27,773 nucleotides of DNA from a virus (Duplodnaviria > Heunggongvirae > Uroviricota > Caudoviricetes). Both the position numbers and the translations under genes were made by a program. Positions within the stretch are counted from its first letter, which is position 1. Each line of letters starts with the position of its first letter. Below are positions 8,347 through 19,418 of the stretch, piece by piece. Under the pieces are notes generated by a model. The model worked only from the letters and a program-made list of their open reading frames with translations. It was not told the origin of the DNA and ran no database searches. Location of the stretch: the IMG/VR virus record IMGVR_UViG_2531839178_000008, positions 1 through 27,773 of that record. One strand, 5' to 3'.

Positions 8347-8688
8347 TCATCCGAAGAAGCAGCAATCCGGGTCAGCACGCACAAGCTCAAGCGCATCAGT
8401 CAGCGAAAGTTCAGTACTGTACTGATGCCATTTCATATCCTTCCGCATCCAATAGATTTTCCATCTATCCAGAGAACGTATGTACTTGATTCTTGCTGAT
8501 GGCAGGATGTTTGTTTCACCTGGGTTGCCCTGCCACACGGGGCGCTGTTCGCCGATATCTATCGTTTGGTCATTGATGCTATAAACAATATCCAGTTCAT
8601 TGCGGATATGTTCAGGCGGCCTTATGCTTTCAATGAATTGGTGAACTTCTTTTTTGACCGCTTGATATTCAAGGTCAGTGAACGCCAT
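8347..8688 (-). CDS. hypothetical protein (113 aa) directly downstream of the repressor gene
   Basis: ATG at 8688 with GAGGAGG 5 nt upstream, 37 bp after the repressor stop on the same strand; no family recognised. Confidence 0.6.
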   Translation of the reverse strand: MAFTDLEYQAVKKEVHQFIESIRPPEHIRNELDIVYSINDQTIDIGEQRPVWQGNPGETNILPSARIKYIRSLDRWKIYWMRKDMKWHQYSTELSLTDALELVRADPDCCFFG

Positions 8689-8725
8689 CTATCCTCCTCA
8701 CCCAAACGTTTCTTCAGGCCACTGG

Positions 8726-9432
8726 TTACCAGCTATGCGATGACCAGAATACTCTGCCAATAATCCTTACGGTTTTATGAAATTCATCTCTATCCATTAC
8801 TTCATCCGGGTACTCTTCGCGATTTATTGATCTGATTATCACCGATGTAGGAGTGGCGATTAATGTTTTTACTCGCAACAAATCAGACTGGCAAATAGCG
8901 TAGGTTTTACCATCTCTGATGGTGGTATCTTGTGTGTTAACACCAACAACATCGCCATCGTGAAGAGTTGGTTCCATGCTTTGACCTGTTACCCTTACCA
9001 GCTTGGCAGAACTTTCAGTTACCCCCATCTTTTTCAGATAGTACTTTCTGAAAACCAAAGAGAACTCTGATGATTCTTCTATCTCGCAGCTACCGCTTCC
9101 AGCCGAAAGCGAAACGTTAAGAAGAGGCAATGCGACAAACTCGTCATCGTTTTTTTAATGTCTTCCCATACCACAGCTTTTAAAGATGACTCACGGATAT
9201 TGGATGGTTCTTCATGTGTACCATCCCTCATTTCACCAATACCAGAACTAAGCCATTCAGGGCGTACTTTTAAAGCATTAGCTAACTCAACCATCTTGCG
9301 AGATCCGTTTGTTTTACCGGATGACATCTTCTGTATGGCTGGCTGAGATATTCCAACCATGTCCGCAAGCTGTGATTGCGACACCCCTGCCGATCTCATG
9401 GCTGCATTTAGTCTTTCTGCGAATGTTTTCAT
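8726..9432 (-). pseudogene. cI: cI-like repressor (XRE-type HTH plus S24 LexA-like peptidase domain) interrupted by a frameshift
   Basis: N-terminal frame from ATG 9432 encodes the HTH domain (QSQLADMVGISQPAIQKMSSGK). A second frame (8726..9130) encodes ...LPLLNVSLSAGSGS... with Ala-Gly and GQSMEPTL (S24 Ser motif). The frames meet at an A7 run (coding strand; + strand T7 at 9150..9156); one extra A gives a continuous repressor. Confidence 0.8.
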
Positions 9433-9444
9433 ATCCACAAATCT

Positions 9445-9520
9445 ATAACTACGGTTATCCAAAGTAAAATAATAAAGGTTATTGCTATCTTTTATAACTT
9501 GGGTTATCCTTGGTTATAAG
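9445..9520. promoter_or_regulatory. OR operator region with divergent promoters
   Basis: Palindromic sites ATAACTACGGTTAT (9445..9458) and ATAACTTGGGTTAT (9494..9507), plus AATAAAGGTTATT (9471..9483) and a partial site at 9510..9520; putative pR -35 TTGCTA (9482..9487) and -10 TATCCT (9505..9510). Confidence 0.6.
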
Positions 9521-9543
9521 TAATGACTGAAAGAGGTATGCTC

Positions 9544-9768
9544 ATGAATTTAGTAATTCAACGAGCCTTGAAGATTGTCGGTAGTCAAAAGCGGCTTGCC
9601 GACAAGTGTGGTGTAACGCAGCCAGCAGTACACAAATGGCTGAAAGGCGGGCAGGTTTCTCCAGAGAAAGTTACCGCCATCGTTAACGCCACTGGAGGGC
9701 AGATCAAGGCTTACGAAATTCGCCCAGATTTACCACACCTGTTTCCAAAACCGAATCAGGCAGCATAA
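9544..9768 (+). CDS. cro: Cro-like DNA-binding protein (YdaS-type HTH)
   Basis: Divergent from the repressor; AGAGG 7 nt upstream of ATG 9544; HTH segment SQKRLADKCGVTQPAVHKWLKG. Confidence 0.7.
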   Translation: MNLVIQRALKIVGSQKRLADKCGVTQPAVHKWLKGGQVSPEKVTAIVNATGGQIKAYEIRPDLPHLFPKPNQAA

Positions 9769-9806
9769 GTAACACCGCTATTTTCACAATGGGCATTCGT
9801 CCTACG

Positions 9807-9821
9807 TCGCTGACAAAGCGA
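9807..9821 (+). promoter_or_regulatory. nutR boxB hairpin
   Basis: TCGCTGACAAAGCGA, same UGACAAA loop as the nutL element, between cro and cII. Confidence 0.6.
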
Positions 9822-9851
9822 GCCCCAAGATATCTGACCAACTAAGGCCAT

Positions 9852-9867
9852 ATGCGTTTCCACGCAT
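9852..9867 (+). terminator. weak tR1-like hairpin
   Basis: ATGCGT-TTCC-ACGCAT between boxB and cII with only a weak T tract after it. Confidence 0.25.
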
Positions 9868-9906
9868 AGCTTTCAACTAACTATTCACTATTGGAAATCT
9901 TAAGAA

Positions 9907-10206
9907 ATGGAACAAACAAGTTACAGCAAACTATCACAGCGCGACGTTGATCGTGCAGAAACAGATTTACTCATCAACCTGTCAACGCTTACCCAGCGCG
10001 GTCTGGCAAAGATGATTGGCTGTCATGAATCGAAGATAAGCAGAACGGACTGGAGGTTTATTGCTTCGGTCTTGTGTGCTTTCGGAATGGCATCAGACAT
10101 CAGTCCGATTAGCAGGGCTTTTAAGTATGCGATTGATGGACTCACCAATAAAAAACGCCCGGTGTGCAAGACCGAGCGTTCTGAACAAATCCAGATGGAA
10201 TTTTAA
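9907..10206 (+). CDS. cII: cII-like transcriptional activator
   Basis: C-terminus ...GLTNKKRPVCKTERSEQIQMEF matches the lambda cII tail as recalled; position after cro and nutR. Confidence 0.8.
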   Translation: MEQTSYSKLSQRDVDRAETDLLINLSTLTQRGLAKMIGCHESKISRTDWRFIASVLCAFGMASDISPISRAFKYAIDGLTNKKRPVCKTERSEQIQMEF

Positions 10207-10228
10207 CAACATCCAACGAGGTAATTAT

Positions 10229-10372
10229 ATGCGAAAAACGCAGGAAAATAAACGCGTTAATCACCGAAAAGATGTGCTACGTGACCAGTTTTATCAGGGG
10301 GTTAATCCAGAAATAGCTGTGCCACTGAGAGAAATACTTAACAGGTACAAAACTTCGGAGAAGTCAAAATGA
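10229..10372 (+). CDS. small hypothetical protein (47 aa)
   Basis: ATG 10229 with GAGG upstream; stop overlaps the next start (ATGA). Confidence 0.4.
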   Translation: MRKTQENKRVNHRKDVLRDQFYQGVNPEIAVPLREILNRYKTSEKSK

Positions 10373-11121
10373 GCATGAATCTTATGGCTAAGGCCATGAA
10401 TATAAAGGTTGGCAACCCACTGAGAAAACTGATTCTGATTAAACTTGCCGATAACGCCAATGATAATGGCGAATGCTGGCCTTCATATCAACATGTCGCT
10501 GACCAGTGTGAGGTGAGCAGATCGACAGTAAAAAGTCACATTAGGGCACTGGAAGAGATGGGGCTTTTGAAAAGGGAATGCAGAAGAAAAGGAGAGCTTA
10601 ACCAGTCAAACGTTTTTTATCTGACGCTGGATAATGCACAACAAATCCCACCAGAATCAGGTGGGGCAGGAGCTGCCCGGGGTGGGGCAGGAGCTGCCCC
10701 CAGAACCTATCACTCTTTTGAACCAGTCAATGAACCTAAAAACATTATGTTCGAACATGTCCGAACGGAGTGTGAAAAAACTCCTGACCGTCACGAAGAA
10801 ACCGACAAGGCATTCGAGGAAATATTCTGGTGTGCAGGCATGCGGAAAGCCGGGAAGAAAAACGCAGCTTCGGCATTCAGAACACAGTTCAGGGAATGGC
10901 GTAAAACTACCAGGGGGACGGCAAGCGAGTTTGCCACGATGCTGGCAGACGATATTGCATGCAGGAATGGTAAGCAGTTCGGATTCGACAGGTTGTTACC
11001 GTCGAGCTACCTGAACGGTCAGCGCTGGAACGACGAGAAGCCAGAAACCATTCAACCACAATCCAGACCATCATCCGCAATTACCGTATCGAAAACTGGC
11101 TACGTGTTTTTCGACAGGTGA
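10369..11121 (+). CDS. replication initiation protein (O-like, winged-helix N-terminal domain)
   Basis: N-terminal HTH-like segment (NPLRKLILIKLADNANDNGECWPSYQHVADQCEVSRSTVKSHIRALEEMGLLKR) of the type found in phage replication initiators; internal iteron-like repeat; position after cII. Confidence 0.6.
   Translation: MSMNLMAKAMNIKVGNPLRKLILIKLADNANDNGECWPSYQHVADQCEVSRSTVKSHIRALEEMGLLKRECRRKGELNQSNVFYLTLDNAQQIPPESGGAGAARGGAGAAPRTYHSFEPVNEPKNIMFEHVRTECEKTPDRHEETDKAFEEIFWCAGMRKAGKKNAASAFRTQFREWRKTTRGTASEFATMLADDIACRNGKQFGFDRLLPSSYLNGQRWNDEKPETIQPQSRPSSAITVSKTGYVFFDR
10660..10701. repeat. two tandem 21-bp repeats with internal dyad symmetry (candidate origin iterons)
   Basis: GGTGGGGCAGGAGCTGCCC occurs at 10660..10678 and 10681..10699, each with inverted GGGCAG/CTGCCC arms, followed by an AT-richer stretch; encodes a GGAGAAR/GGAGAAP repeat. 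Confidence 0.6.
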
Positions 11122-11124
11122 ACC

Positions 11125-11232
11125 ATGAAATCAAAAATCAAATCGCTACTGGTCGCTGGTTATAACCACGGCTGGTTAAGTATTTCGTTTGTCGATTTCT
11201 GGTTTAAAAATCTCAATCTGAGGGAATCATGA
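11125..11232 (+). CDS. small hydrophobic ORF (35 aa) coupled to the primase-helicase start
   Basis: ATG 11125 four nt after the upstream stop; stop TGA overlaps the primase-helicase ATG; MKSKIKSLLVAGYNHGWLSISFVDFWFKNLNLRES. Confidence 0.3.
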   Translation: MKSKIKSLLVAGYNHGWLSISFVDFWFKNLNLRES

Positions 11233-14135
11233 GGCCAAGTGAACTTAGCGACCTGCTTTGGGCGCAGGTTGACAGGGTGGCTCCGCACCTGTTGCCAAAT
11301 GGCAAGAAAGAGGGGCATGAGTGGGTTGCCGGTAACGTCAACGGTGACAAGGGAAACAGCCTTAAGGTCAACCTTAGCGGCAAGAAAAAATGGGCTGATT
11401 TCGCTGAGGGAGACGGCGGTGACATGCTTGATTTGTGGATGGCATGTCGTGGAATTAACCTGCATCAGGCTATGCAGGAAGCGAAAGCATTTCTCGGTAT
11501 CAAGGATGACGATCACCATTTCGATGCCAAACGTGAGAAGAAATTCTCCAGACCTGATCGCAAGAAAATCGCCCACTACGTTACCAGAACAGAATCCCAT
11601 CTTGAGTACCTGCAATCGCGTGGCATATCGCCAGAAGTCGTAAAGCGCTACGAGGTTGTCAGCGGCAAGGTGTGGAATGGAGAACGAGAACTGGATGCTC
11701 TGGTGCTTCCGTACAAACGCGATGGTGAGTTGTTGCAGGTCAAGCGAATCAGCACTGAGCGCCCGGACGGGAAGAAAGTCATTATGGCAGAAGGTGATTG
11801 CGAACCTTGCCTGTTCGGATGGCAGGCTCTGGACGCTGGCGTGAGGGCGGTTGTGCTTTGCGAAGGCGAAATTGATTGTATGAGCTATGCGCAATACGGC
11901 ATCTCGGCGTTATCCGTGCCGTTTGGTGGCGGGAAAGGCGCTAAGCAACAGTGGATTGAGTTTGAGTATCACAACCTCGACAGGTTTGAGGAAATATTCA
12001 TCTCGATGGACGTTGATGATGTTGGTCGTGAAGCCGCAAGGGAAATCGCAAGCCGACTCGGTGAACATCGTTGCCGTCTTGTTACTCTGCCGTACAAAGA
12101 CATCAACGAATGCCTGATGAACGGTGTTACCGAGGATGAAATCTGGCAGTACATCGGCACGGCATCCTACTTTGATCCTGAAGAACTCTACAGCGCGCGA
12201 GAGTTTTACCAGGACACTATCAACGCTTTCTACAGCAAGCAGCAGTATCTGTTTAATCCACCGTGGGAATCTCTGGCAGATAAATTCCAGTTCCGTGAGG
12301 CCGAGTTGACGCTGGTCAATGGTGTGAACGGTCACGGAAAGGCATGCCCACTGAATGAGCCTATTCTTTTAGCTGATGGGACATGGACTACTCACGGGAA
12401 TGTAAAAATTGGCGATCAGGTGGCGTCAGTAGACGGCAATCCGTCAACTGTCACTGGGATATTCCCGCAGGGTGTTAGAGATGTTTACCGAGTCACATTT
12501 GAAGATGGTCGTTATGTTGATTGCGCAGGCGATCACCTATGGGAGGTCACTAGTCGTGGATTCACGAAAGGCGAGAAACGCCGCGTGATAGATACCTTCG
12601 GGTTGAAGCGGTTGAGTGAAACGAAGAGGCACAAAAATGGCGTTAGGATTCCTGAAATAACTGGTGACTTTGGCGACCACTCAGAGCCATTAGCATGGGT
12701 TATCGGCTCCCTTCTCGGGGATGGTAGTCTTAGCAATGGGAGCGTGAAGTTTTCAAACGTCGAGCCATACATGATCGAGCGTATGAAGGCTGAACTGCCT
12801 GATTACAACTTCTCTGGAGATGGTAAGGACTGGCTGATATCAACGGCGCGTGGTCAGGTAAATCCACTCATGGAGACCCTGCGAGGTTATGGACTAATGG
12901 GGTGCACAGCAAAAAACAAATTCATCCCTCGTGTGTTTTTTTCCGCAAATAAATCAACGCGTATAGGCATGCTGTGTGGTCTGCTTGAAACGGATGGGTA
13001 TGTCGAGAAGGATGGAACGCTTGTTTTTTCCTCAGCAAGTGAAGAACTGCGCAATGGGGTTGTTCAACTGGTTAACTCACTCGGCGGGTCATGCCGGACG
13101 CGAGTTAAAACTGGCGTGACATACACATACAAGGACGATAAGCGGCATGGGATGGATTCATACGAGGCAAGAATCAGACTGACAAGAGAAATCAGGGAGG
13201 CCATCCGTTCACCACGACTCAATGGCAGATTAACTGCGCATCGATTCGAGGGCTGTGGGGTATTCGTCAGGAATGTTGAAAAAATCGGCAATGCAGAATG
13301 CTTGTGTATTATGGTCGATCACCCTCGCCACCTGTATGTAACCAGGGGATATGTGGCGACGCATAACACCGAGGTTGTCGGGCATATGGCACTTGAGGCA
13401 ATGCGTCAGGGTGTGAAGACGTGCATCGCGTCACTTGAGCTGAAGCCTGGTATTCTCCTTAAGCGCCTTACCCGTCAGGCGACGTGCTGCAAGATTCCGC
13501 CAGTGCTGGAAATTGACTCTGCATTTAAATTTTATGACGAAAGACTTTGGGTGTTTGGCCTGACCGGAACGGCGAAAGCCGACAGGCTGATCGAAATATT
13601 CGACTACGCTCGCCGCCGATACGGGATCCAGTTATTCATCATCGACAGCCTGATGAAATGTGGCATAGGCGACGATGACTATAACGGGCAGAAGGCGTTT
13701 GTTGACTCGATTTGCGACTTCAAAAACAAAACAAACTCCCACGTCATTCTCGTTACTCACTCGCGAAAAGGAGACAGCGAAGAAAAACCAACCGGGAAAA
13801 TGGACGTAAAAGGCTCTGGAGCGATAACAGACCTGACAGACAACCTTTTCATCATCTGGCGTAACAAGGCTCGCGAGAGAGCGTTACAGAGAGTTCAGAG
13901 TGGTGAAAAGATGTCAGAGAAGGACGAACAGCTACTGGCATCTCCGGCATCTGTTTTAATGCTTGAAAAACAACGTAACGGCGAAGGTTGGGAAGGTGGT
14001 GTCCCGTTGTTCCTTGACGAGCAATCGCACCAGTTCCTGCAACTTGAATCAGGATCGCCATATAGCTACATCGCCAATATGCCGAAATCGGAATATGACG
14101 AGGCGTGGCGACAGGAAAACGTGACGGAGTATTAA
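11229..14135 (+). CDS. primase-helicase (Toprim primase plus gp4/DnaB-like SF4 helicase) containing an intein
   Basis: Toprim motif (VVLCEGEIDCMSYA), P-loop GVNGHGKA interrupted, Walker B-like IQLFIIDSLMK after the insert; 968-aa ORF with GAGGG ribosome-binding site. Confidence 0.85.
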   Translation: MRPSELSDLLWAQVDRVAPHLLPNGKKEGHEWVAGNVNGDKGNSLKVNLSGKKKWADFAEGDGGDMLDLWMACRGINLHQAMQEAKAFLGIKDDDHHFDAKREKKFSRPDRKKIAHYVTRTESHLEYLQSRGISPEVVKRYEVVSGKVWNGERELDALVLPYKRDGELLQVKRISTERPDGKKVIMAEGDCEPCLFGWQALDAGVRAVVLCEGEIDCMSYAQYGISALSVPFGGGKGAKQQWIEFEYHNLDRFEEIFISMDVDDVGREAAREIASRLGEHRCRLVTLPYKDINECLMNGVTEDEIWQYIGTASYFDPEELYSAREFYQDTINAFYSKQQYLFNPPWESLADKFQFREAELTLVNGVNGHGKACPLNEPILLADGTWTTHGNVKIGDQVASVDGNPSTVTGIFPQGVRDVYRVTFEDGRYVDCAGDHLWEVTSRGFTKGEKRRVIDTFGLKRLSETKRHKNGVRIPEITGDFGDHSEPLAWVIGSLLGDGSLSNGSVKFSNVEPYMIERMKAELPDYNFSGDGKDWLISTARGQVNPLMETLRGYGLMGCTAKNKFIPRVFFSANKSTRIGMLCGLLETDGYVEKDGTLVFSSASEELRNGVVQLVNSLGGSCRTRVKTGVTYTYKDDKRHGMDSYEARIRLTREIREAIRSPRLNGRLTAHRFEGCGVFVRNVEKIGNAECLCIMVDHPRHLYVTRGYVATHNTEVVGHMALEAMRQGVKTCIASLELKPGILLKRLTRQATCCKIPPVLEIDSAFKFYDERLWVFGLTGTAKADRLIEIFDYARRRYGIQLFIIDSLMKCGIGDDDYNGQKAFVDSICDFKNKTNSHVILVTHSRKGDSEEKPTGKMDVKGSGAITDLTDNLFIIWRNKARERALQRVQSGEKMSEKDEQLLASPASVLMLEKQRNGEGWEGGVPLFLDEQSHQFLQLESGSPYSYIANMPKSEYDEAWRQENVTEY
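12345..13367 (+). mobile_element. intein (341 aa) with a LAGLIDADG homing-endonuclease domain, inserted at the helicase P-loop
   Basis: Starts at Cys (CPLNEPILLADG...IGDQV...DG, block A), block B His (AGDHLWEV), two LAGLIDADG motifs (WVIGSLLGDGSL and IGMLCGLLETDGYV), blocks F/G (CLCIMVDHPRHLYV...GYVATHN) ending in His-Asn, followed by Thr as +1. Confidence 0.8.
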
Positions 14136-14213
14136 ATGACCATCTACATCACTGAGCTTGTAACAGGCCTGCTGGTAATCGCAGGCCTTTTTATTTGGGG
14201 GAGAGGGAAGTGA
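14136..14213 (+). CDS. small hydrophobic ORF (25 aa)
   Basis: ATG immediately after the primase-helicase stop; MTIYITELVTGLLVIAGLFIWGRGK, a single predicted transmembrane helix. Confidence 0.25.
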   Translation: MTIYITELVTGLLVIAGLFIWGRGK

Positions 14214-14488
14214 ACGATAGCTACCGACAGTTTGAAAACTGGTGGTCAAAAGACAAAAGCCAGTTCACAGGAGACGATGAATTAAAAGAGTTTGCCTGGG
14301 TGATATGGCAGGCATCGCGAGCAGCTATTGAACTGGATATCGACTGGCCCGAATCGAATGACGACTTTTGGAAAGATGGTGAAGAAGGTGCTTATGCGAT
14401 GGGTTATGAGGATGGGCGTGACAAAACGGTAATTGCAGTAATGAAAGCTATCAGAGCCGCTGGAATTAAAGAGAAGAATTTTCGATGA
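14210..14488 (+). CDS. hypothetical nin-region protein
   Basis: GTG at 14210 with GGGAGAGGG upstream preferred over the listed TTG; acidic Trp-rich product; stop overlaps the NinB start. Confidence 0.45.
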   Translation: MNDSYRQFENWWSKDKSQFTGDDELKEFAWVIWQASRAAIELDIDWPESNDDFWKDGEEGAYAMGYEDGRDKTVIAVMKAIRAAGIKEKNFR

Positions 14489-14895
14489 AGCAAACAATCT
14501 TCCTCCGAACTAAGCAACAACAGCAAGCCGCAATAAATGCCATCCTCTCAACTCCTCTCGATAAAGACAAGCCAGTCACCATCCGCATTACTGACTACAA
14601 GCGAAATCTTGACCAGAACGCAAAATTTCACGCGATGCTGGCGGATATCGCTCGTCAGGTTCAATGGTGCGGCAAATGGTTAAAACCGGAACAATGGAAG
14701 GTTTTGTTGATCAGCGGTCATGCAGTGGCAACAAAACAGGAAGCTGATGTTTTGCCCGGGCTTGAAGGCGAATACGTCAACATTCGCGAAAGCAGCGCGC
14801 AGATGAGTGTGAAGCGTATGGCAAGTCTGATTGAGTACACGACAGCATGGGCTATTGGTCAGGGTGTCAGATTTACCGACAGGAGGTACGAATGA
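14485..14895 (+). CDS. ninB: NinB (Orf-family recombination mediator)
   Basis: Conserved NinB pattern (..[27 protein letters not shown]..) and position after the replication genes. Confidence 0.8.
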
Positions 14896-15068
14896 GACGA
14901 CAGCGACGAAGTATCACCGACATCATCTGCGAAAACTGCAAATACCTTCCAACGAAACGCTCCAGAAATAAATGCAAGCCAATCCCAAAAGAATCTGACG
15001 TAAAAACCTTCAACTACACGGCTCACCTGTGGGATATCCGGTGGCTAAGACATCGTGCGAGGAAATGA
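14892..15068 (+). CDS. ninE: NinE-like small protein
   Basis: ATG 14892 overlapping the NinB stop with AGGAGG upstream; [58 protein letters not shown] resembles lambda NinE as recalled. Confidence 0.5.
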
Positions 15069-15109
15069 CTATTTATCCGGTGCGCCGCCAGAATGACGGC
15101 GCGGTGTGG

Positions 15110-15418
15110 TTAAACGAAGCGGATCTGGAGTTTTTTTCCAGTAGCGCGGGCGAATTTTTTTAGGGTGGCAAATGATGGGCCGCTGATACCTGATGCGAGA
15201 TTACTTTCCATTCTGGTGATCGCGGTCGCTTTTGTTCCCATTCGCTCGGCAACTTCAGCCTGAGTTAAGCCAGCTTCTTTGCGTGCTGCCAGCATTTCAT
15301 CAAGCAGTGCGAATTCGTCAGCGATAGCGTCGTATTCTGCTTTAAAAGCCGGGTCTTCCATCCATTTGGCTGCCATTTCGTCGTGTGTCATGGTGGGGAG
15401 AGTGCGTTTACCAGTCAT
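15110..15418 (-). CDS. HigA-family antitoxin (XRE-type HTH)
   Basis: ATG 15418 with AAGGAGG 6 nt upstream; HTH segment AGLTQAEVAERMGTKATAITRMESNLASG; overlaps the toxin 3' end by 11 nt. Confidence 0.8.
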   Translation of the reverse strand: MTGKRTLPTMTHDEMAAKWMEDPAFKAEYDAIADEFALLDEMLAARKEAGLTQAEVAERMGTKATAITRMESNLASGISGPSFATLKKFARATGKKLQIRFV

Positions 15419-15737
15419 GCTTAACCTCCTTCATTCTGGTTTCAGCTTTCTTGCGTTCGGCTGGCGGTGTTTTCTGCGTTTTCTTTACAAAACTATGCAG
15501 CATGATGATGCGTTTCCCTGTCAGAGTGCAGTAAAAAACACGCGCGATCCCATCGTTGCCTTTAATTCTGAGTTCGAAAAGCCCGTCACCAAAGGCGCTG
15601 GTGTGAGGTTCTCCGAGATTGCTGCCATATATCTTCATACGTTCAACGAGATGTTGGTATCGGGCACGCATACTCAATGGAAGCCGATCGACTTCCAGCC
15701 TTACATCTTCACTGTAGTATTCGATAGTGTAGTTCAT
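15408..15737 (-). CDS. Gp49-like / HigB-family (RelE/ParE superfamily) toxin
   Basis: MNYTIEYYSEDVRLEVDRLP...GDGLFELRIKGNDGIARVFYCTL...IIMLHSFVKKTQKTPPAERKKAE matches the addiction-module killer pattern; toxin precedes antitoxin. Start could also be the ATG at 15749. Confidence 0.8.
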   Translation of the reverse strand: MNYTIEYYSEDVRLEVDRLPLSMRARYQHLVERMKIYGSNLGEPHTSAFGDGLFELRIKGNDGIARVFYCTLTGKRIIMLHSFVKKTQKTPPAERKKAETRMKEVKHDW

Positions 15738-15872
15738 AGGTATCAACATAACAAAATCGTTATATGCATTCAAGGCCTGTAGTTGACGACAACACATATC
15801 CGGGGCTATATTCCTCACGCGCCAGCAAAATCTGGCGTCGGGATTGGAACCCCGGATATCGAAACGGTGCAT

Positions 15873-15892
15873 ACCGCGCTGGCGGTTTTTTT
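15873..15892 (+). terminator. weak intrinsic terminator in the nin region
   Basis: ACCGC-GCUG-GCGGU followed by T7 on the + strand. Confidence 0.35.
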
Positions 15893-16055
15893 ATGCGCTA
15901 AGCACAGTCACATTCGCGATTTATGGCGGGCTGTGTGGGGGCACCGAAAGGTGCGCCGGATGTTTCGACCGGTAGTTCCAACCCTGCACAGTTCGCCACC
16001 CGATGATTGGAACCTGAAGGTGGTGAGGTAAAAATTATCGAAACGCGAGGTCGTT

Positions 16056-16742
16056 ATGACTGTTCAAGTTGCTGTCAAAAACCTTTCCCCTGTCACTTAT
16101 AACCAGATTCCTGTAATCACAACTGAGTTACTCGCCCGCCTTTACGGAACAGAAGCAATCCGTATACAGCAGAATCACCATGAAAATAAATCTCGATTTA
16201 TTGAGGGAAAACACTTCTTTAAAGCTGTTGGTGATGAGCTCAAAAATTTGCGACTAGTTTTAAACGAGTCGCAAAATGAGGTGAAAATTTCTCCAAAAAC
16301 CCGCTCCCTCATCCTCTGGACAGAACGCGGCGCAGCTCGTCACGCGAAGATGCTCGAAACCGATCAGGCATGGGACGTGTTCGAAAAACTGGAAGACTGC
16401 TATTTCAGCCAGACTTCGAAAAGCGCAGGTCATCACGAGAAGAAAACCAGCGAGCTTTCTGCAAAAGATGCAAACAGTCTGGTATGGTTGTGGGATTATG
16501 CCAACCGCTCACAGGTATTATTCCGCGAACTGTATCCGGCGCTAAGACAAATTCAGTCTAACTATTCCGGCAGATGCCACGACTACGGTCATGAGTTCTC
16601 GTATGTTATCGGAATGGCGAGAGACGTTTTAATCAATCACACACGAGATGTTGATATTAATGAGCCAGACGGACCAACGAATCTTTCTGCATGGGTAAGA
16701 CTTAAGAACAAAGAATTACCTCCTTCACTACATCACTACTGA
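16056..16742 (+). CDS. ORF6N-domain protein (antirepressor-like)
   Basis: N-terminal ..[35 protein letters not shown].. (NKxRFxEGKH signature); GAGG ribosome-binding site. Confidence 0.65.
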
Positions 16743-16760
16743 CAGATTGCCAACGCAACG

Positions 16761-16784
16761 ACCCAGCTTCGGCTGGGTTTTTTA
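16761..16784 (+). terminator. rho-independent terminator
   Basis: ACCCAGC-TTCG-GCTGGGT followed by TTTTTT. Confidence 0.75.
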
Positions 16785-16816
16785 TTGCTGAATTTTCAAT
16801 ATGAGAGGACATGACA

Positions 16817-17071
16817 ATGAACGAGCTGATAAATAGCAACGCCATTAAAATGACCAGCATTGAAATCGCTGAGTTGGTGGGTAAGCGTCATGACAATGTG
16901 AAACGTACCATCGAAACGCTGGTTAAAAGTGGAGTTATCCGGCTTCCTCAAATTGAGGTTTCCGAAAGAATCAATAACTTAGGGTTCAATGTTCAGTACG
17001 AGCATTACGTCTTCGAAGGCGAACAAGGTAAGCGCGACAGCATTATTGTCGTTGAAGGAGGTGTTGCATGA
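16817..17071 (+). CDS. Rha-like regulatory protein (pRha domain)
   Basis: ..MTSIEIAELVGKRHDNVKRTIETL.. matches the Rha N-terminal signature; ATG 16817 has better ribosome-binding-site spacing than 16811; stop overlaps the next start. Confidence 0.55.
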   Translation: MNELINSNAIKMTSIEIAELVGKRHDNVKRTIETLVKSGVIRLPQIEVSERINNLGFNVQYEHYVFEGEQGKRDSIIVVEGGVA

Positions 17072-17838
17072 ATGCCGTAATTATTGCCAACGCAGAAATC
17101 GTGCCGATTGAGTTTAATGGCGAGCGTGTTGTTACGTATCAAATGATTGCTGATATTCACGGGGTTCCAGTAGCCACTATTCAAAATGGCTATGCGCGAA
17201 ACTCTGAGTATTTCATAGACAGGGAAGATACATATTTTATTGATTTTCATGAAAATACCTTTAGAAGGGGTTTTGAAATTCCTCCTCGTGGCATGCGAGT
17301 TTTCACTGAATCAGGCTATTTGATGCTGGTTAAAACCCTGCGCGACGAGACGGCGTGGAGAGTGCAACGTGAGCTTGTTCGCAATTATTTTCGTGGCCAA
17401 AAAGAAGATAAGTCAGCCTTGCCCGACTTCACAAACCCTGCTGAAGCCGCCAGAGCGTGGGCAAACGAATATGAGCAGAAAGTGAAGCTGGAGCAACAAC
17501 TCGCGATTGCCGCACCTAAAGTTGAGTTTGCCGATCGCGTTGGCGAGGCCAGCGGAATTTTGATTGGAAACTTTGCAAAGGTTGTTGGTATTGGCCCAAA
17601 CAAACTGTTTGCGTGGATGCGTGATCACAAAATCCTTATTGCTTCAGGTTCCCGGCGCAATGTGCCAATGCAGGAATATATGGATCGCGGCTATTTCACA
17701 GTGAAAGAAACAGCGGTCAACACAAATCACGGAATACAGATATCGTTCACCACAAAAATCACCGGGCGTGGTCAACAGTGGCTGACCAGAAAGCTGCTCG
17801 ATAACGGAATGCTGAAAGTAACAGGGGAGGCTGCATGA
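17068..17838 (+). CDS. phage antirepressor (ORF6N-like N-terminus plus KilA-C/ANT C-terminal domain)
   Basis: C-terminal segment ..ADRVGEASGILIGNFAKVVGIGPNKLFAWMRDHKILIASG.. is typical of the ANT domain. Confidence 0.7.
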   Translation: MNAVIIANAEIVPIEFNGERVVTYQMIADIHGVPVATIQNGYARNSEYFIDREDTYFIDFHENTFRRGFEIPPRGMRVFTESGYLMLVKTLRDETAWRVQRELVRNYFRGQKEDKSALPDFTNPAEAARAWANEYEQKVKLEQQLAIAAPKVEFADRVGEASGILIGNFAKVVGIGPNKLFAWMRDHKILIASGSRRNVPMQEYMDRGYFTVKETAVNTNHGIQISFTTKITGRGQQWLTRKLLDNGMLKVTGEAA

Positions 17839-18197
17839 ATGAGTACAGATTCACGCTTCCATACCCACCATCGCTGAATACCTACTGGCGAAGACGGGGA
17901 AGCCAATACTACATCAGCGATAAAGGCCAGAAATACCGAAAAGACGTTCAGCAAATCATCCGCCAACTCAAGTTAGATATTTTCACCAAAGCACGACTCC
18001 GCATCAAAGTCATCGCAGACGTTCCAGACTCCCGCCGCCGCGACCTCGACAACATCCTGAAGGGGCTACTCGACTCTCTTATCCACGCCGGATTTGCGGA
18101 AGACGACGAGCAATTCGATGACATTCGCGTAATTCGTGGTGTGAAAGTACCAGGCGGAAGGCTTGGAATAAAAATCACCGAACTGGAGAACGTATGA
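17835..18197 (+). CDS. rusA: RusA-family Holliday junction resolvase
   Basis: LPYPPSLNTYW..., RRRDLDNILKGLLDSL and C-terminal GGRLGIKITELENV parallel E. coli RusA. Confidence 0.85.
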   Translation: MNEYRFTLPYPPSLNTYWRRRGSQYYISDKGQKYRKDVQQIIRQLKLDIFTKARLRIKVIADVPDSRRRDLDNILKGLLDSLIHAGFAEDDEQFDDIRVIRGVKVPGGRLGIKITELENV

Positions 18198-19262: not shown

Positions 19263-19337
19263 GGGTCAGTCGTATAAAGGTCATTACGGAAGGCTGTTAA
19301 CCTTCTTATCGTGGTTCGAGTCCACGCTGTCCCGCCA
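19263..19337 (+). tRNA. tRNA-like gene, anticodon GUU (Asn-like), atypical
   Basis: Canonical T arm CGTGG-TTCGAGT-CCACG, anticodon arm GAAGG-CTGTTAA-CCTTC, encoded CCA; but acceptor stem has a U-U mismatch and the D arm is only 3 bp. Confidence 0.4.
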
Positions 19338-19342
19338 AACAT

Positions 19343-19418
19343 GCTGGTTTAGCTCCAATGGTAGAGCAGTCGCCTTGTAAGCGAATGGGTAGCGGTTCAA
19401 GTCCGTTAACCAGCACCA
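19343..19418 (+). tRNA. tRNA, anticodon UGU (Thr)
   Basis: Manual fold: acceptor GCTGGTT/AACCAGC, D arm GCTC-CAATGGTA-GAGC, anticodon loop CTTGTAA, variable TGGGT, T arm AGCGG-TTCAAGT-CCGTT, discriminator A, encoded CCA; 76 nt. Confidence 0.65.

Follow-up and report, generated by a model that had tools for sequence, protein, structure and literature searches.

What do three adjacent antirepressor-type genes in the nin region of a lambdoid phage encode, and how may their expression be controlled? The question is raised by positions 16056–17838 of the viral record IMGVR_UViG_2531839178_000008, which was analysed as one stretch of 27,773 nt (the window below, to which all coordinates refer) and represents the early/late-early region of a lambdoid prophage or phage. 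Its nearest relative is the prophage of E. coli FDAARGOS_944 (locus L001), which is 97.5% identical to the window at 15900–17900 and 99.7–99.9% identical over most of 1–15069. An earlier note, made from the letters alone, had read the segment as a cluster of three antirepressor genes flanked by terminators, with an inverted ORF6N paralog at the left edge of the window as a potential partner for DNA inversion. Most probably, the segment is instead the ant-roi accessory module of the nin region of Shiga-toxin (Stx)-converting and HK022-like lambdoid phages, composed here of an ant gene gated by C4- and IsrK-like RNAs and of a rebuilt roi gene. The proposed layout comprises Unit A (15783–16786), formed by gene 1 with its RNA leader, and Unit B (16811–17838), formed by genes 2 and 3. 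The module is of an already known kind; its roi allele is rare.

The ant gene and its RNA leader

Gene 1 (16056–16742, + strand, 228 amino acids) is composed of an ORF6N domain (Pfam, E = 2.6e-20) and a P22_AR_C domain (7.9e-28). Its product is 70% identical to Ant of phage Phi24B over the full length, and its homology to AnrP (STM2616) of the Gifsy-1 prophage is limited to the N-terminal ORF6N domain, which is 62% identical. PHROGs places all three genes of the segment, as well as the left-edge open reading frame (ORF), in families named "anti-repressor". The antirepressor-type label is thus upheld both by the Pfam and PHROG matches and by homology to the experimentally tested Phi24B Ant and Gifsy-1 AnrP, whereas the P22_AR_C domain and the regulatory RNAs upstream of gene 1 were both absent from the first reading. 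Searches of the PDB with the sequences of genes 1 and 3 gave no matches. PADLOC returned weak ORF6N-type matches of gene 1 to the candidate family PDC-S05, but none for gene 2 or gene 3. Gene 1 is itself a mosaic, with positions 16146–16240 (residues ~31–60) resembling the subtype of the left-edge gene, not that of Phi24B Ant and AnrP, and the remainder resembling Phi24B Ant.

As judged from the sequence, gene 1 is Ant and constitutes a separate unit with its own predicted promoter, IsrK-like leader, C4 RNA, target sites and terminator. The predicted sigma-70-like promoter (15783–15812, +; TTGACG-18-TATATT, 10 of 12 consensus positions matched in a consensus scan) is the equivalent of PisrK; its 3' end lies 7 nt before the isrK match, and its -35 and -10 elements align with the isrK promoter region of Gifsy-1. 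The IsrK-like leader RNA (15819–15892, +) matches Rfam family isrK (RF01394) with 72.1 bits at a gathering threshold of 50, and the c4-a1b1 element (15806–15858, +; RF03163) scores 50.1 bits at a threshold of 46.7. Two sites exactly complementary to C4 are found in this part of the leader, namely a1 (UUGGAAC, 15844–15850, +) in a hairpin loop and b1 (UCGAAAC, 15859–15865, +). The terminator scan places an intrinsic terminator of the IsrK-like RNA at 15865–15892 (+). Since the promoter-like site and the isrK match adjoin there, this is the element that had been taken for the upstream of two terminators flanking the cluster.

The C4-type antisense RNA (15919–16003, +) matches Rfam C4 (RF01695) with 75.2 bits at a gathering threshold of 45. 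Its fold agrees with the family consensus (minimum free energy -46 kcal/mol, z = -4.88) and exposes two recognition sites: b' (GUUUCGA, 15962–15968, +), unpaired in a 9-nt loop and complementary to b1 and b2, and a' (GUUCCAA, 15975–15981, +), a single-stranded bulge complementary to a1 and a2. The second pair of targets is located in the 5' untranslated region of gene 1 (16007–16051, +), where a2 (UUGGAAC, 16007–16013, +) and b2 (UCGAAAC, 16038–16044, +) show exact 7-nt complementarity to C4. Site b2 lies 3 nt 5' of the Shine-Dalgarno sequence GAGG (16048–16051, +), which is followed by the AUG at 16056.

The ant cassette is closed by an intrinsic terminator at 16760–16786 (+; GACCCAGC-TTCG-GCTGGGTT plus T-run). 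Its stem (16760–16779) together with the T-run is the strongest of the region (z = -3.7), and the same terminator is conserved in the ant/roi spacer of Phi24B. It is situated between genes 1 and 2, and the terminator scan found no + strand terminator 3' of gene 3, so that of the two flanking terminators claimed earlier the upstream one stands and the downstream one does not.

Covariation of the recognition sites was examined in 149 loci gathered by their shared first IsrK hairpin. Eight distinct a1 heptamers occur among them, and in 145 of the 149 the three-way match of a1, a' and a2 is preserved, with the exact reverse complement of the heptamer inside C4 and the heptamer itself repeated downstream. 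The b alleles (at least 10) co-vary likewise at fixed positions and are mixed with various a alleles; the class of the window, UUGGAAC with UCGAAAC, is represented by 12 of the 149 loci. Double-sided changes are seen at 15 of the 26 consensus pairs of C4, and 97.8% of the cells are canonical (48 distinct sequences). An ORF6N gene lies downstream in every collected locus with the C4-loop pattern. In our reading of these features, a complete putative IsrK/C4 switch is present ahead of the ant gene of the window.

The following mode of action is proposed for Unit A. A sigma-70-type promoter would drive synthesis of the IsrK-like leader with a1/b1 and a leaky terminator, and the read-through RNA would contain C4, then a2/b2 near the ant Shine-Dalgarno sequence, then ant and the strong terminator. 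C4, either in cis or processed and in trans, would pair its two single-stranded patches with a2/b2 and shut off ant translation in the lysogen until titrated by the IsrK-like RNA. Since both sites recur in the short IsrK-like RNA, it should be able to compete for C4, which would turn ant translation on. In Gifsy-1, which sets the precedent, anrP is transcribed from the isrK promoter as part of a long, translationally silent RNA; supply of short IsrK in trans lifts anrP translation ~140-fold, and AnrP induces the prophage (PMC4825925). Ant may then promote derepression and induction, as has been shown for Phi24B Ant and Gifsy-1 AnrP. With its own predicted promoter and terminator, Unit A could thus be expressed from the prophage.

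Several points weigh against this picture. The promoter is a consensus match only, and three such sites are present in the region as compared with a mean of 5.1 in shuffled sequences. The IsrK-like fold taken by itself is unexceptional (z = -1.39). The leader ORF coupling of Gifsy-1 and P1 is not kept: the ORF of the window (ATG at 15923) has 27 codons and a stop at 16006, 49 nt before the AUG of gene 1, and the switch may therefore differ in detail. To our knowledge, no target repressor has been demonstrated for any ORF6N/P22_AR_C or KilAC protein of the ant-roi module. The cI gene of the window is frameshifted, so the natural target of Ant may be absent unless the frameshift is a sequencing error. 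Finally, superinfection immunity was not affected by Ant in Phi24B (PMC3064807).

The CI-type repressor gene in question (8729–9432, − strand) is split at codon 94 by a frameshift near 9150–9156, where the window has a homopolymer T7 and FDAARGOS_944 has T8. In the relative it encodes a 235-residue protein with helix-turn-helix and S24 peptidase domains, and both halves in the window are 100% identical to it at the protein level. The split corresponds either to a sequencing error or to a defective repressor.

Additional IsrK/C4 leaders were observed in other phages. One viral contig (L007) carries two of them (3961–3985 and 7223–7247), with the a allele UUGGCGU in both and the b alleles UACGGA and UCGAAAC, that is, two partly cross-specific cassettes within one phage. 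In some Stx2a phages (for example, VT2phi_272, 5406–5648, −) the opposite strand carries, close to the left genome end, a second copy of the leader that is ~72% identical. The left-arm antirepressor gene of those phages may thus also be controlled by C4, unlike the left-edge gene of the window.

Genes 2 and 3 and their relation to roi

Gene 2 (16811–17071, +, 86 amino acids) matches in Pfam only the first 27 of the 91 Phage_pRha positions (6.2e-7), and its pRha match in NCBIfam is below threshold. It is nevertheless 95% identical to residues 1–79 of HK620 Roi (75 of 79) and consists of the first 81 codons of an HK620-type roi, five new codons (EGGVA) and a stop. A tblastn search with gene 2 found matches at the 5' end of full-length roi in 342 phage records. 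The last helix of the pRha-type domain is missing, the alignment stopping before AQLSPEFTARLVDRWRELE, and the equivalent of gene 2 was annotated by PGAP as a pseudogene ("incomplete, missing C-terminus"). Gene 3 (17068–17838, +) overlaps the stop of gene 2 with its start through ATGA and encodes an ORF6N domain (Pfam, 1.7e-10) followed by an ANT/KilAC domain (3.1e-33). Its residues 126–256 are 92% identical to residues 110–240 of HK620 Roi (121 of 131).

Both junctions can be located by nucleotide alignment to HK620 roi. Homology breaks off between GTCGTTG and AAGGAGGTGTTGCATGAATGCC (17054/17055) and returns in the linker at the start of KilAC, at ~17412–17470 depending on the parental roi allele. 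The substituted cassette accordingly covers 17055–17412 (+) if the right boundary is set by a parent of the P0003 type, and extends to ~17470 if the parent was HK620-like. Within these ~360–415 bp it provides an AAGGAGG ribosome-binding site, an ATG and a foreign ORF6N domain, which is followed, from the conserved linker ALPDFTNPAEAARAWA onwards, by the resident KilAC domain of Roi. On this sequence evidence genes 2 and 3 represent a single roi gene, split and re-headed by cassette substitution. The single ~240-residue pRha + KilAC polypeptide typical of Roi is not encoded, as the frame closes five codons after Roi codon 81, while the Roi-type KilAC domain and the nin-region place before rusA, as in the gene order of HK620, are both retained. 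The three genes are hence not three independent antirepressor genes: gene 2 is a remnant of the roi 5' end, and gene 3 carries the C-terminal domain of the same gene.

The rebuilt allele is rare. No close relative of the N-terminal module of gene 3 was found in 50,697 phage records, the best match reaching 46%. Among 5.8 billion proteins full-length relatives of gene 3 form two clusters only, P0001 (98%) and P0002 (89%), whereas ordinary 240-residue Roi proteins are abundant there. An exhaustive search with the N-terminal module alone gave 1853 related representatives, the closest of which, P0054 (72%), is an ORF6N protein that has the same linker but another KilAC domain behind it. Conversely, at least five N-terminal modules are combined with the Roi-type KilAC domain, including a second pRha type (P0003), KilA-N (P0005) and an ant-type ORF6N fragment (P0013). 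Such domain shuffling is familiar for these regulators. The last of these proteins, P0013 (203 residues, E. coli), is a natural ant-roi fusion in which 52 residues from the start of an ant-type ORF6N domain lead directly into the Roi linker and KilAC.

The identical junction is present in six further loci (L001, L026, L028, L050, L058 and L109). Five of them differ from the window by 0–1 nt and give no selection signal on gene 2; because of this near-identity they are uninformative on whether gene 2 is under selection. In the sixth, L058, gene 3 has diverged by 14% at the nucleotide level and gene 2 carries an HK022-type allele of the roi 5' end. The same locus has another roi remnant upstream of the gene 2/gene 3 pair (119–586), where ~33 HK620-type roi codons are fused to an unrelated C-terminus of 120 residues. 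Insertion at the 5' end of roi seems to have happened repeatedly. A programmed frameshift joining gene 2 to gene 3 was also considered and rejected, because no relative with the pRha-ORF6N-KilAC architecture was found and gene 3 has its own AAGGAGG.

Unit B has no apparent promoter of its own and would be read mainly by antiterminated transcription from PR. Given the position of Unit B downstream of the ant terminator and in one run with rusA-ninH-Q, delayed-early expression together with these genes is expected. The gene 3 protein would keep the KilAC effector domain of Roi, and its new N-terminal domain may read a different target.

The left-edge paralog, alternative explanations and surroundings

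The partial ORF at the left edge (1–158, −) encodes an ORF6N N-terminus (Pfam, 2.4e-9). It shares 34 of 51 residues (67%) with gene 1, so the inverted paralog with a similar N-terminus described earlier is confirmed at the protein level. At the nucleotide level the two copies match at 104 of 157 positions (66%), and no exact run exceeds 8 nt. The earlier note had itself named low nucleotide identity as evidence against its proposal, and with 66% identity within the window the copies do not qualify as an inversion substrate there. The full-length left gene can be deduced from the 99.75%-identical relative L001: it would encode ~260 residues with ORF6N as the only domain, also the sole domain shared with gene 1, and would belong to a leftward early operon, adjoining in the relative an AntA/P22_AR_C gene, xis and int. 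Neither a C4/IsrK leader nor a consensus promoter was found ahead of the left gene, the only element there being a terminator-like hairpin at 253–232 (−). Beyond the window edge, again as deduced from L001, a 143-bp stretch of the left gene is 86% identical to positions 16281–16423 of gene 1 and contains exact runs of 32, 23 and 18 nt. Measured against the near-identical inverted DNA with exact runs above about 25–30 nt that homologous inversion calls for, this stretch is a marginal recombination substrate at best.

It is highly improbable that the segment is a terminator-bracketed cluster of three separately functional antirepressor-type genes, and that the inverted ORF6N paralogs 16 kb apart serve as substrates for inversion of the early region. 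Although all three ORFs are intact and match antirepressor families, and the ORF6N genes are true paralogs with the longer exact runs just mentioned beyond the window edge, gene 2 corresponds to a truncated 5' part of roi, the strong terminator lies inside the cluster with none behind gene 3, and the copies diverge too much within the window. Inversion would moreover turn PR away from Q and should be lethal to the phage, and the related loci that were examined, though not in a systematic search for inversions, included none with the inverted arrangement. A selected role of gene 2 is somewhat less improbable but still unlikely. It would then be a small helix-turn-helix protein working with gene 3 as an autoregulator, as a dominant-negative competitor of a co-resident Roi or, at minimum, as a leader ORF delivering ribosomes through ATGA. 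Its ORF is indeed intact in every locus with the junction, even in the diverged L058 with its HK022-type allele, and the divergent relative P0054 (in locus L057) also stands directly behind a truncated pRha-type gene. However, the pRha fragment in L057 holds an in-frame stop, the allele differences 5' of the junction are explicable by homologous exchange with an intact roi, and the near-identical loci carry no information on selection. The missing last helix, the significant match to 27 of 91 Pfam positions and the pseudogene call by PGAP likewise argue for a remnant.

A minor but real possibility concerns the action of the proteins: gene 3, and possibly gene 1, may encode a regulator of lytic growth of the HK022 Roi kind, which binds DNA at specific sites; the domain swap would then alter the DNA site rather than the repressor recognized. 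HK022 Roi reportedly binds DNA at a site within its own gene and determines growth on IHF mutants (Clerget and Boccard 1996), and ORF6N, pRha and KilA-N are reported to be DNA-binding-type modules (Iyer, Koonin and Aravind 2002). The occurrence of the same KilAC domain behind at least five different N-terminal modules fits this explanation, as does the implication of Roi in lytic growth, for which Clerget and Boccard 1996 is cited in PMC3430580. On the other hand, the KilAC/ANT and P22_AR_C domains are common to the Ant proteins of P1 and P22, which are established inactivators of repressors (PMC3064807), and an ORF6N-type protein, AnrP, induces Gifsy-1 (PMC4825925).

A much bolder extension, which we consider quite improbable, is that the leader of the window represents one allele of a combinatorial address code (at least 8 a and at least 10 b alleles, mixed), which sets whose C4 silences and whose IsrK unlocks the antirepressors of co-resident prophages, and that the split roi was selected as a two-protein variant and is not a scar of recombination. 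If true, the code would link Stx-type prophages at the RNA level in a network of cross-induction and cross-immunity. Antirepressor cassettes help to set the lytic switch of lambdoid prophages, including the Shiga-toxin phages, which bears on toxin release and phage spread. As the recognition sequences of the window belong to one of many co-varying classes, they yield a testable prediction of which co-resident prophages could regulate each other. In the rebuilt roi, the exchange of a domain at a conserved linker can be followed clearly, both junctions being legible; no general principle is changed by it. For annotation purposes, gene 2 is best labelled as a remnant of roi.

The gene coordinates and domain assignments given earlier agree with the ORF list and Pfam, and Pfam searches on the neighbours confirm the position of the cluster between a toxin-antitoxin pair and rusA. 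Upstream lie a Gp49/HigB-like toxin and an HTH_3 antitoxin on the − strand, with NinB further out; downstream lies RusA, the start of its gene overlapping the stop of gene 3 through ATGA. The slot between ninE and the IsrK promoter (15070–15782 of the window, 17195–17883 of L001) is filled with different cassettes in the near-identical prophages: the Gp49/HigB-like and HTH_3 pair in the window and RelE/ParE with HigA in FDAARGOS_944, between flanks that are 98–99.9% identical. Elsewhere in the window, a lambda cIII thermoregulator element was found at 5601–5659 (−; RF01804, 88.5 bits), and two tRNA genes are located just 3' of Q, at 19263–19334 and 19343–19415 (+), whose counterparts in FDAARGOS_944 are annotated as tRNA-Asn and tRNA-Thr.

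Comparison with known systems

The P22_AR_C domain of gene 1 is shared with Ant of P22, encoded in the immI region mnt-arc-ant-sar. In contrast to P22, the cluster has no Pfam match to P22_AR_N and no arc or mnt genes beside it, an Rfam scan of the whole window gave no match to sar RNA at the gathering threshold, and the predicted control is of C4 type instead.

The prototype of such control is the immI region c4-icd-ant of P1 and P7 (Citron and Schuster 1990), as summarized in PMC12197685 and PMC7313666. The likeness consists in a C4 RNA that exposes two single-stranded patches for recognition, in target sites duplicated on either side of c4, in a downstream pair located at the ribosome-binding site of the gene that precedes or encodes the antirepressor, and in allelic recognition sequences that set specificity classes. 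The window differs in having no icd-like coupled ORF and in having an antirepressor composed of ORF6N and P22_AR_C. The phage of the window is also lambdoid, with a CI/Cro immunity region rather than the C1 of P1.

With HK620 the window shares the place of roi in the nin region upstream of rusA. In HK022, HK620 and 933W, however, Roi is a single polypeptide, whereas in the window its pRha-type domain is detached and truncated and ORF6N stands in its place.

The order of the ant-roi module is shared with Phi24B, Min27, YYZ-2008 and Lahn2 (PMC3064807; Smith et al. 2012, PMC3430580). Phi24B and many other Stx phages have ninE, a spacer of ~210 bp, ant (ORF6N + P22_AR_C, 225 residues), a 68-bp spacer, roi and ninG. 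The leader upstream of ant is likewise conserved, with a mean column identity of 94%. The a allele is UUAGCAC in Phi24B and UUGGAAC in the window. The roi of Phi24B encodes one pRha + KilAC protein of 242 residues, in contrast to the split roi of the window with its replaced N-terminal domain. The module is followed by ninG in Phi24B and by rusA in the window, where it is also preceded by the toxin-antitoxin pair. Knockout of ant in Phi24B lowered the pR' output after norfloxacin to 27–56% of wild type (Fogg et al. 2011, PMC3064807), and among Ant proteins of this type an enhancement of derepression upon SOS induction is known from Phi24B alone.

A close counterpart of the leader is isrK-orf45(STnc1160)-anrP of Gifsy-1 (Hershko-Shalev et al. 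2016). AnrP has no P22_AR_C domain, unlike gene 1; the Gifsy-1 alleles are UCACCG (b) and UUGGCGU (a), as compared with UCGAAAC and UUGGAAC; and orf45 (45 codons, +107 to +244) overlaps the anrP AUG (+241), whereas the shorter ORF of the window ends upstream of gene 1. The Gifsy-1 cassette is located after Q and that of the window before rusA-ninH-Q, both being in the late-early region near Q. Apart from this, the two loci are collinear at the nucleotide level from the promoter through the start codon, and they share the whole order of elements: promoter, IsrK with a1/b1 and terminator, C4-like RNA, a2/b2, ribosome-binding site and ORF6N-type gene.

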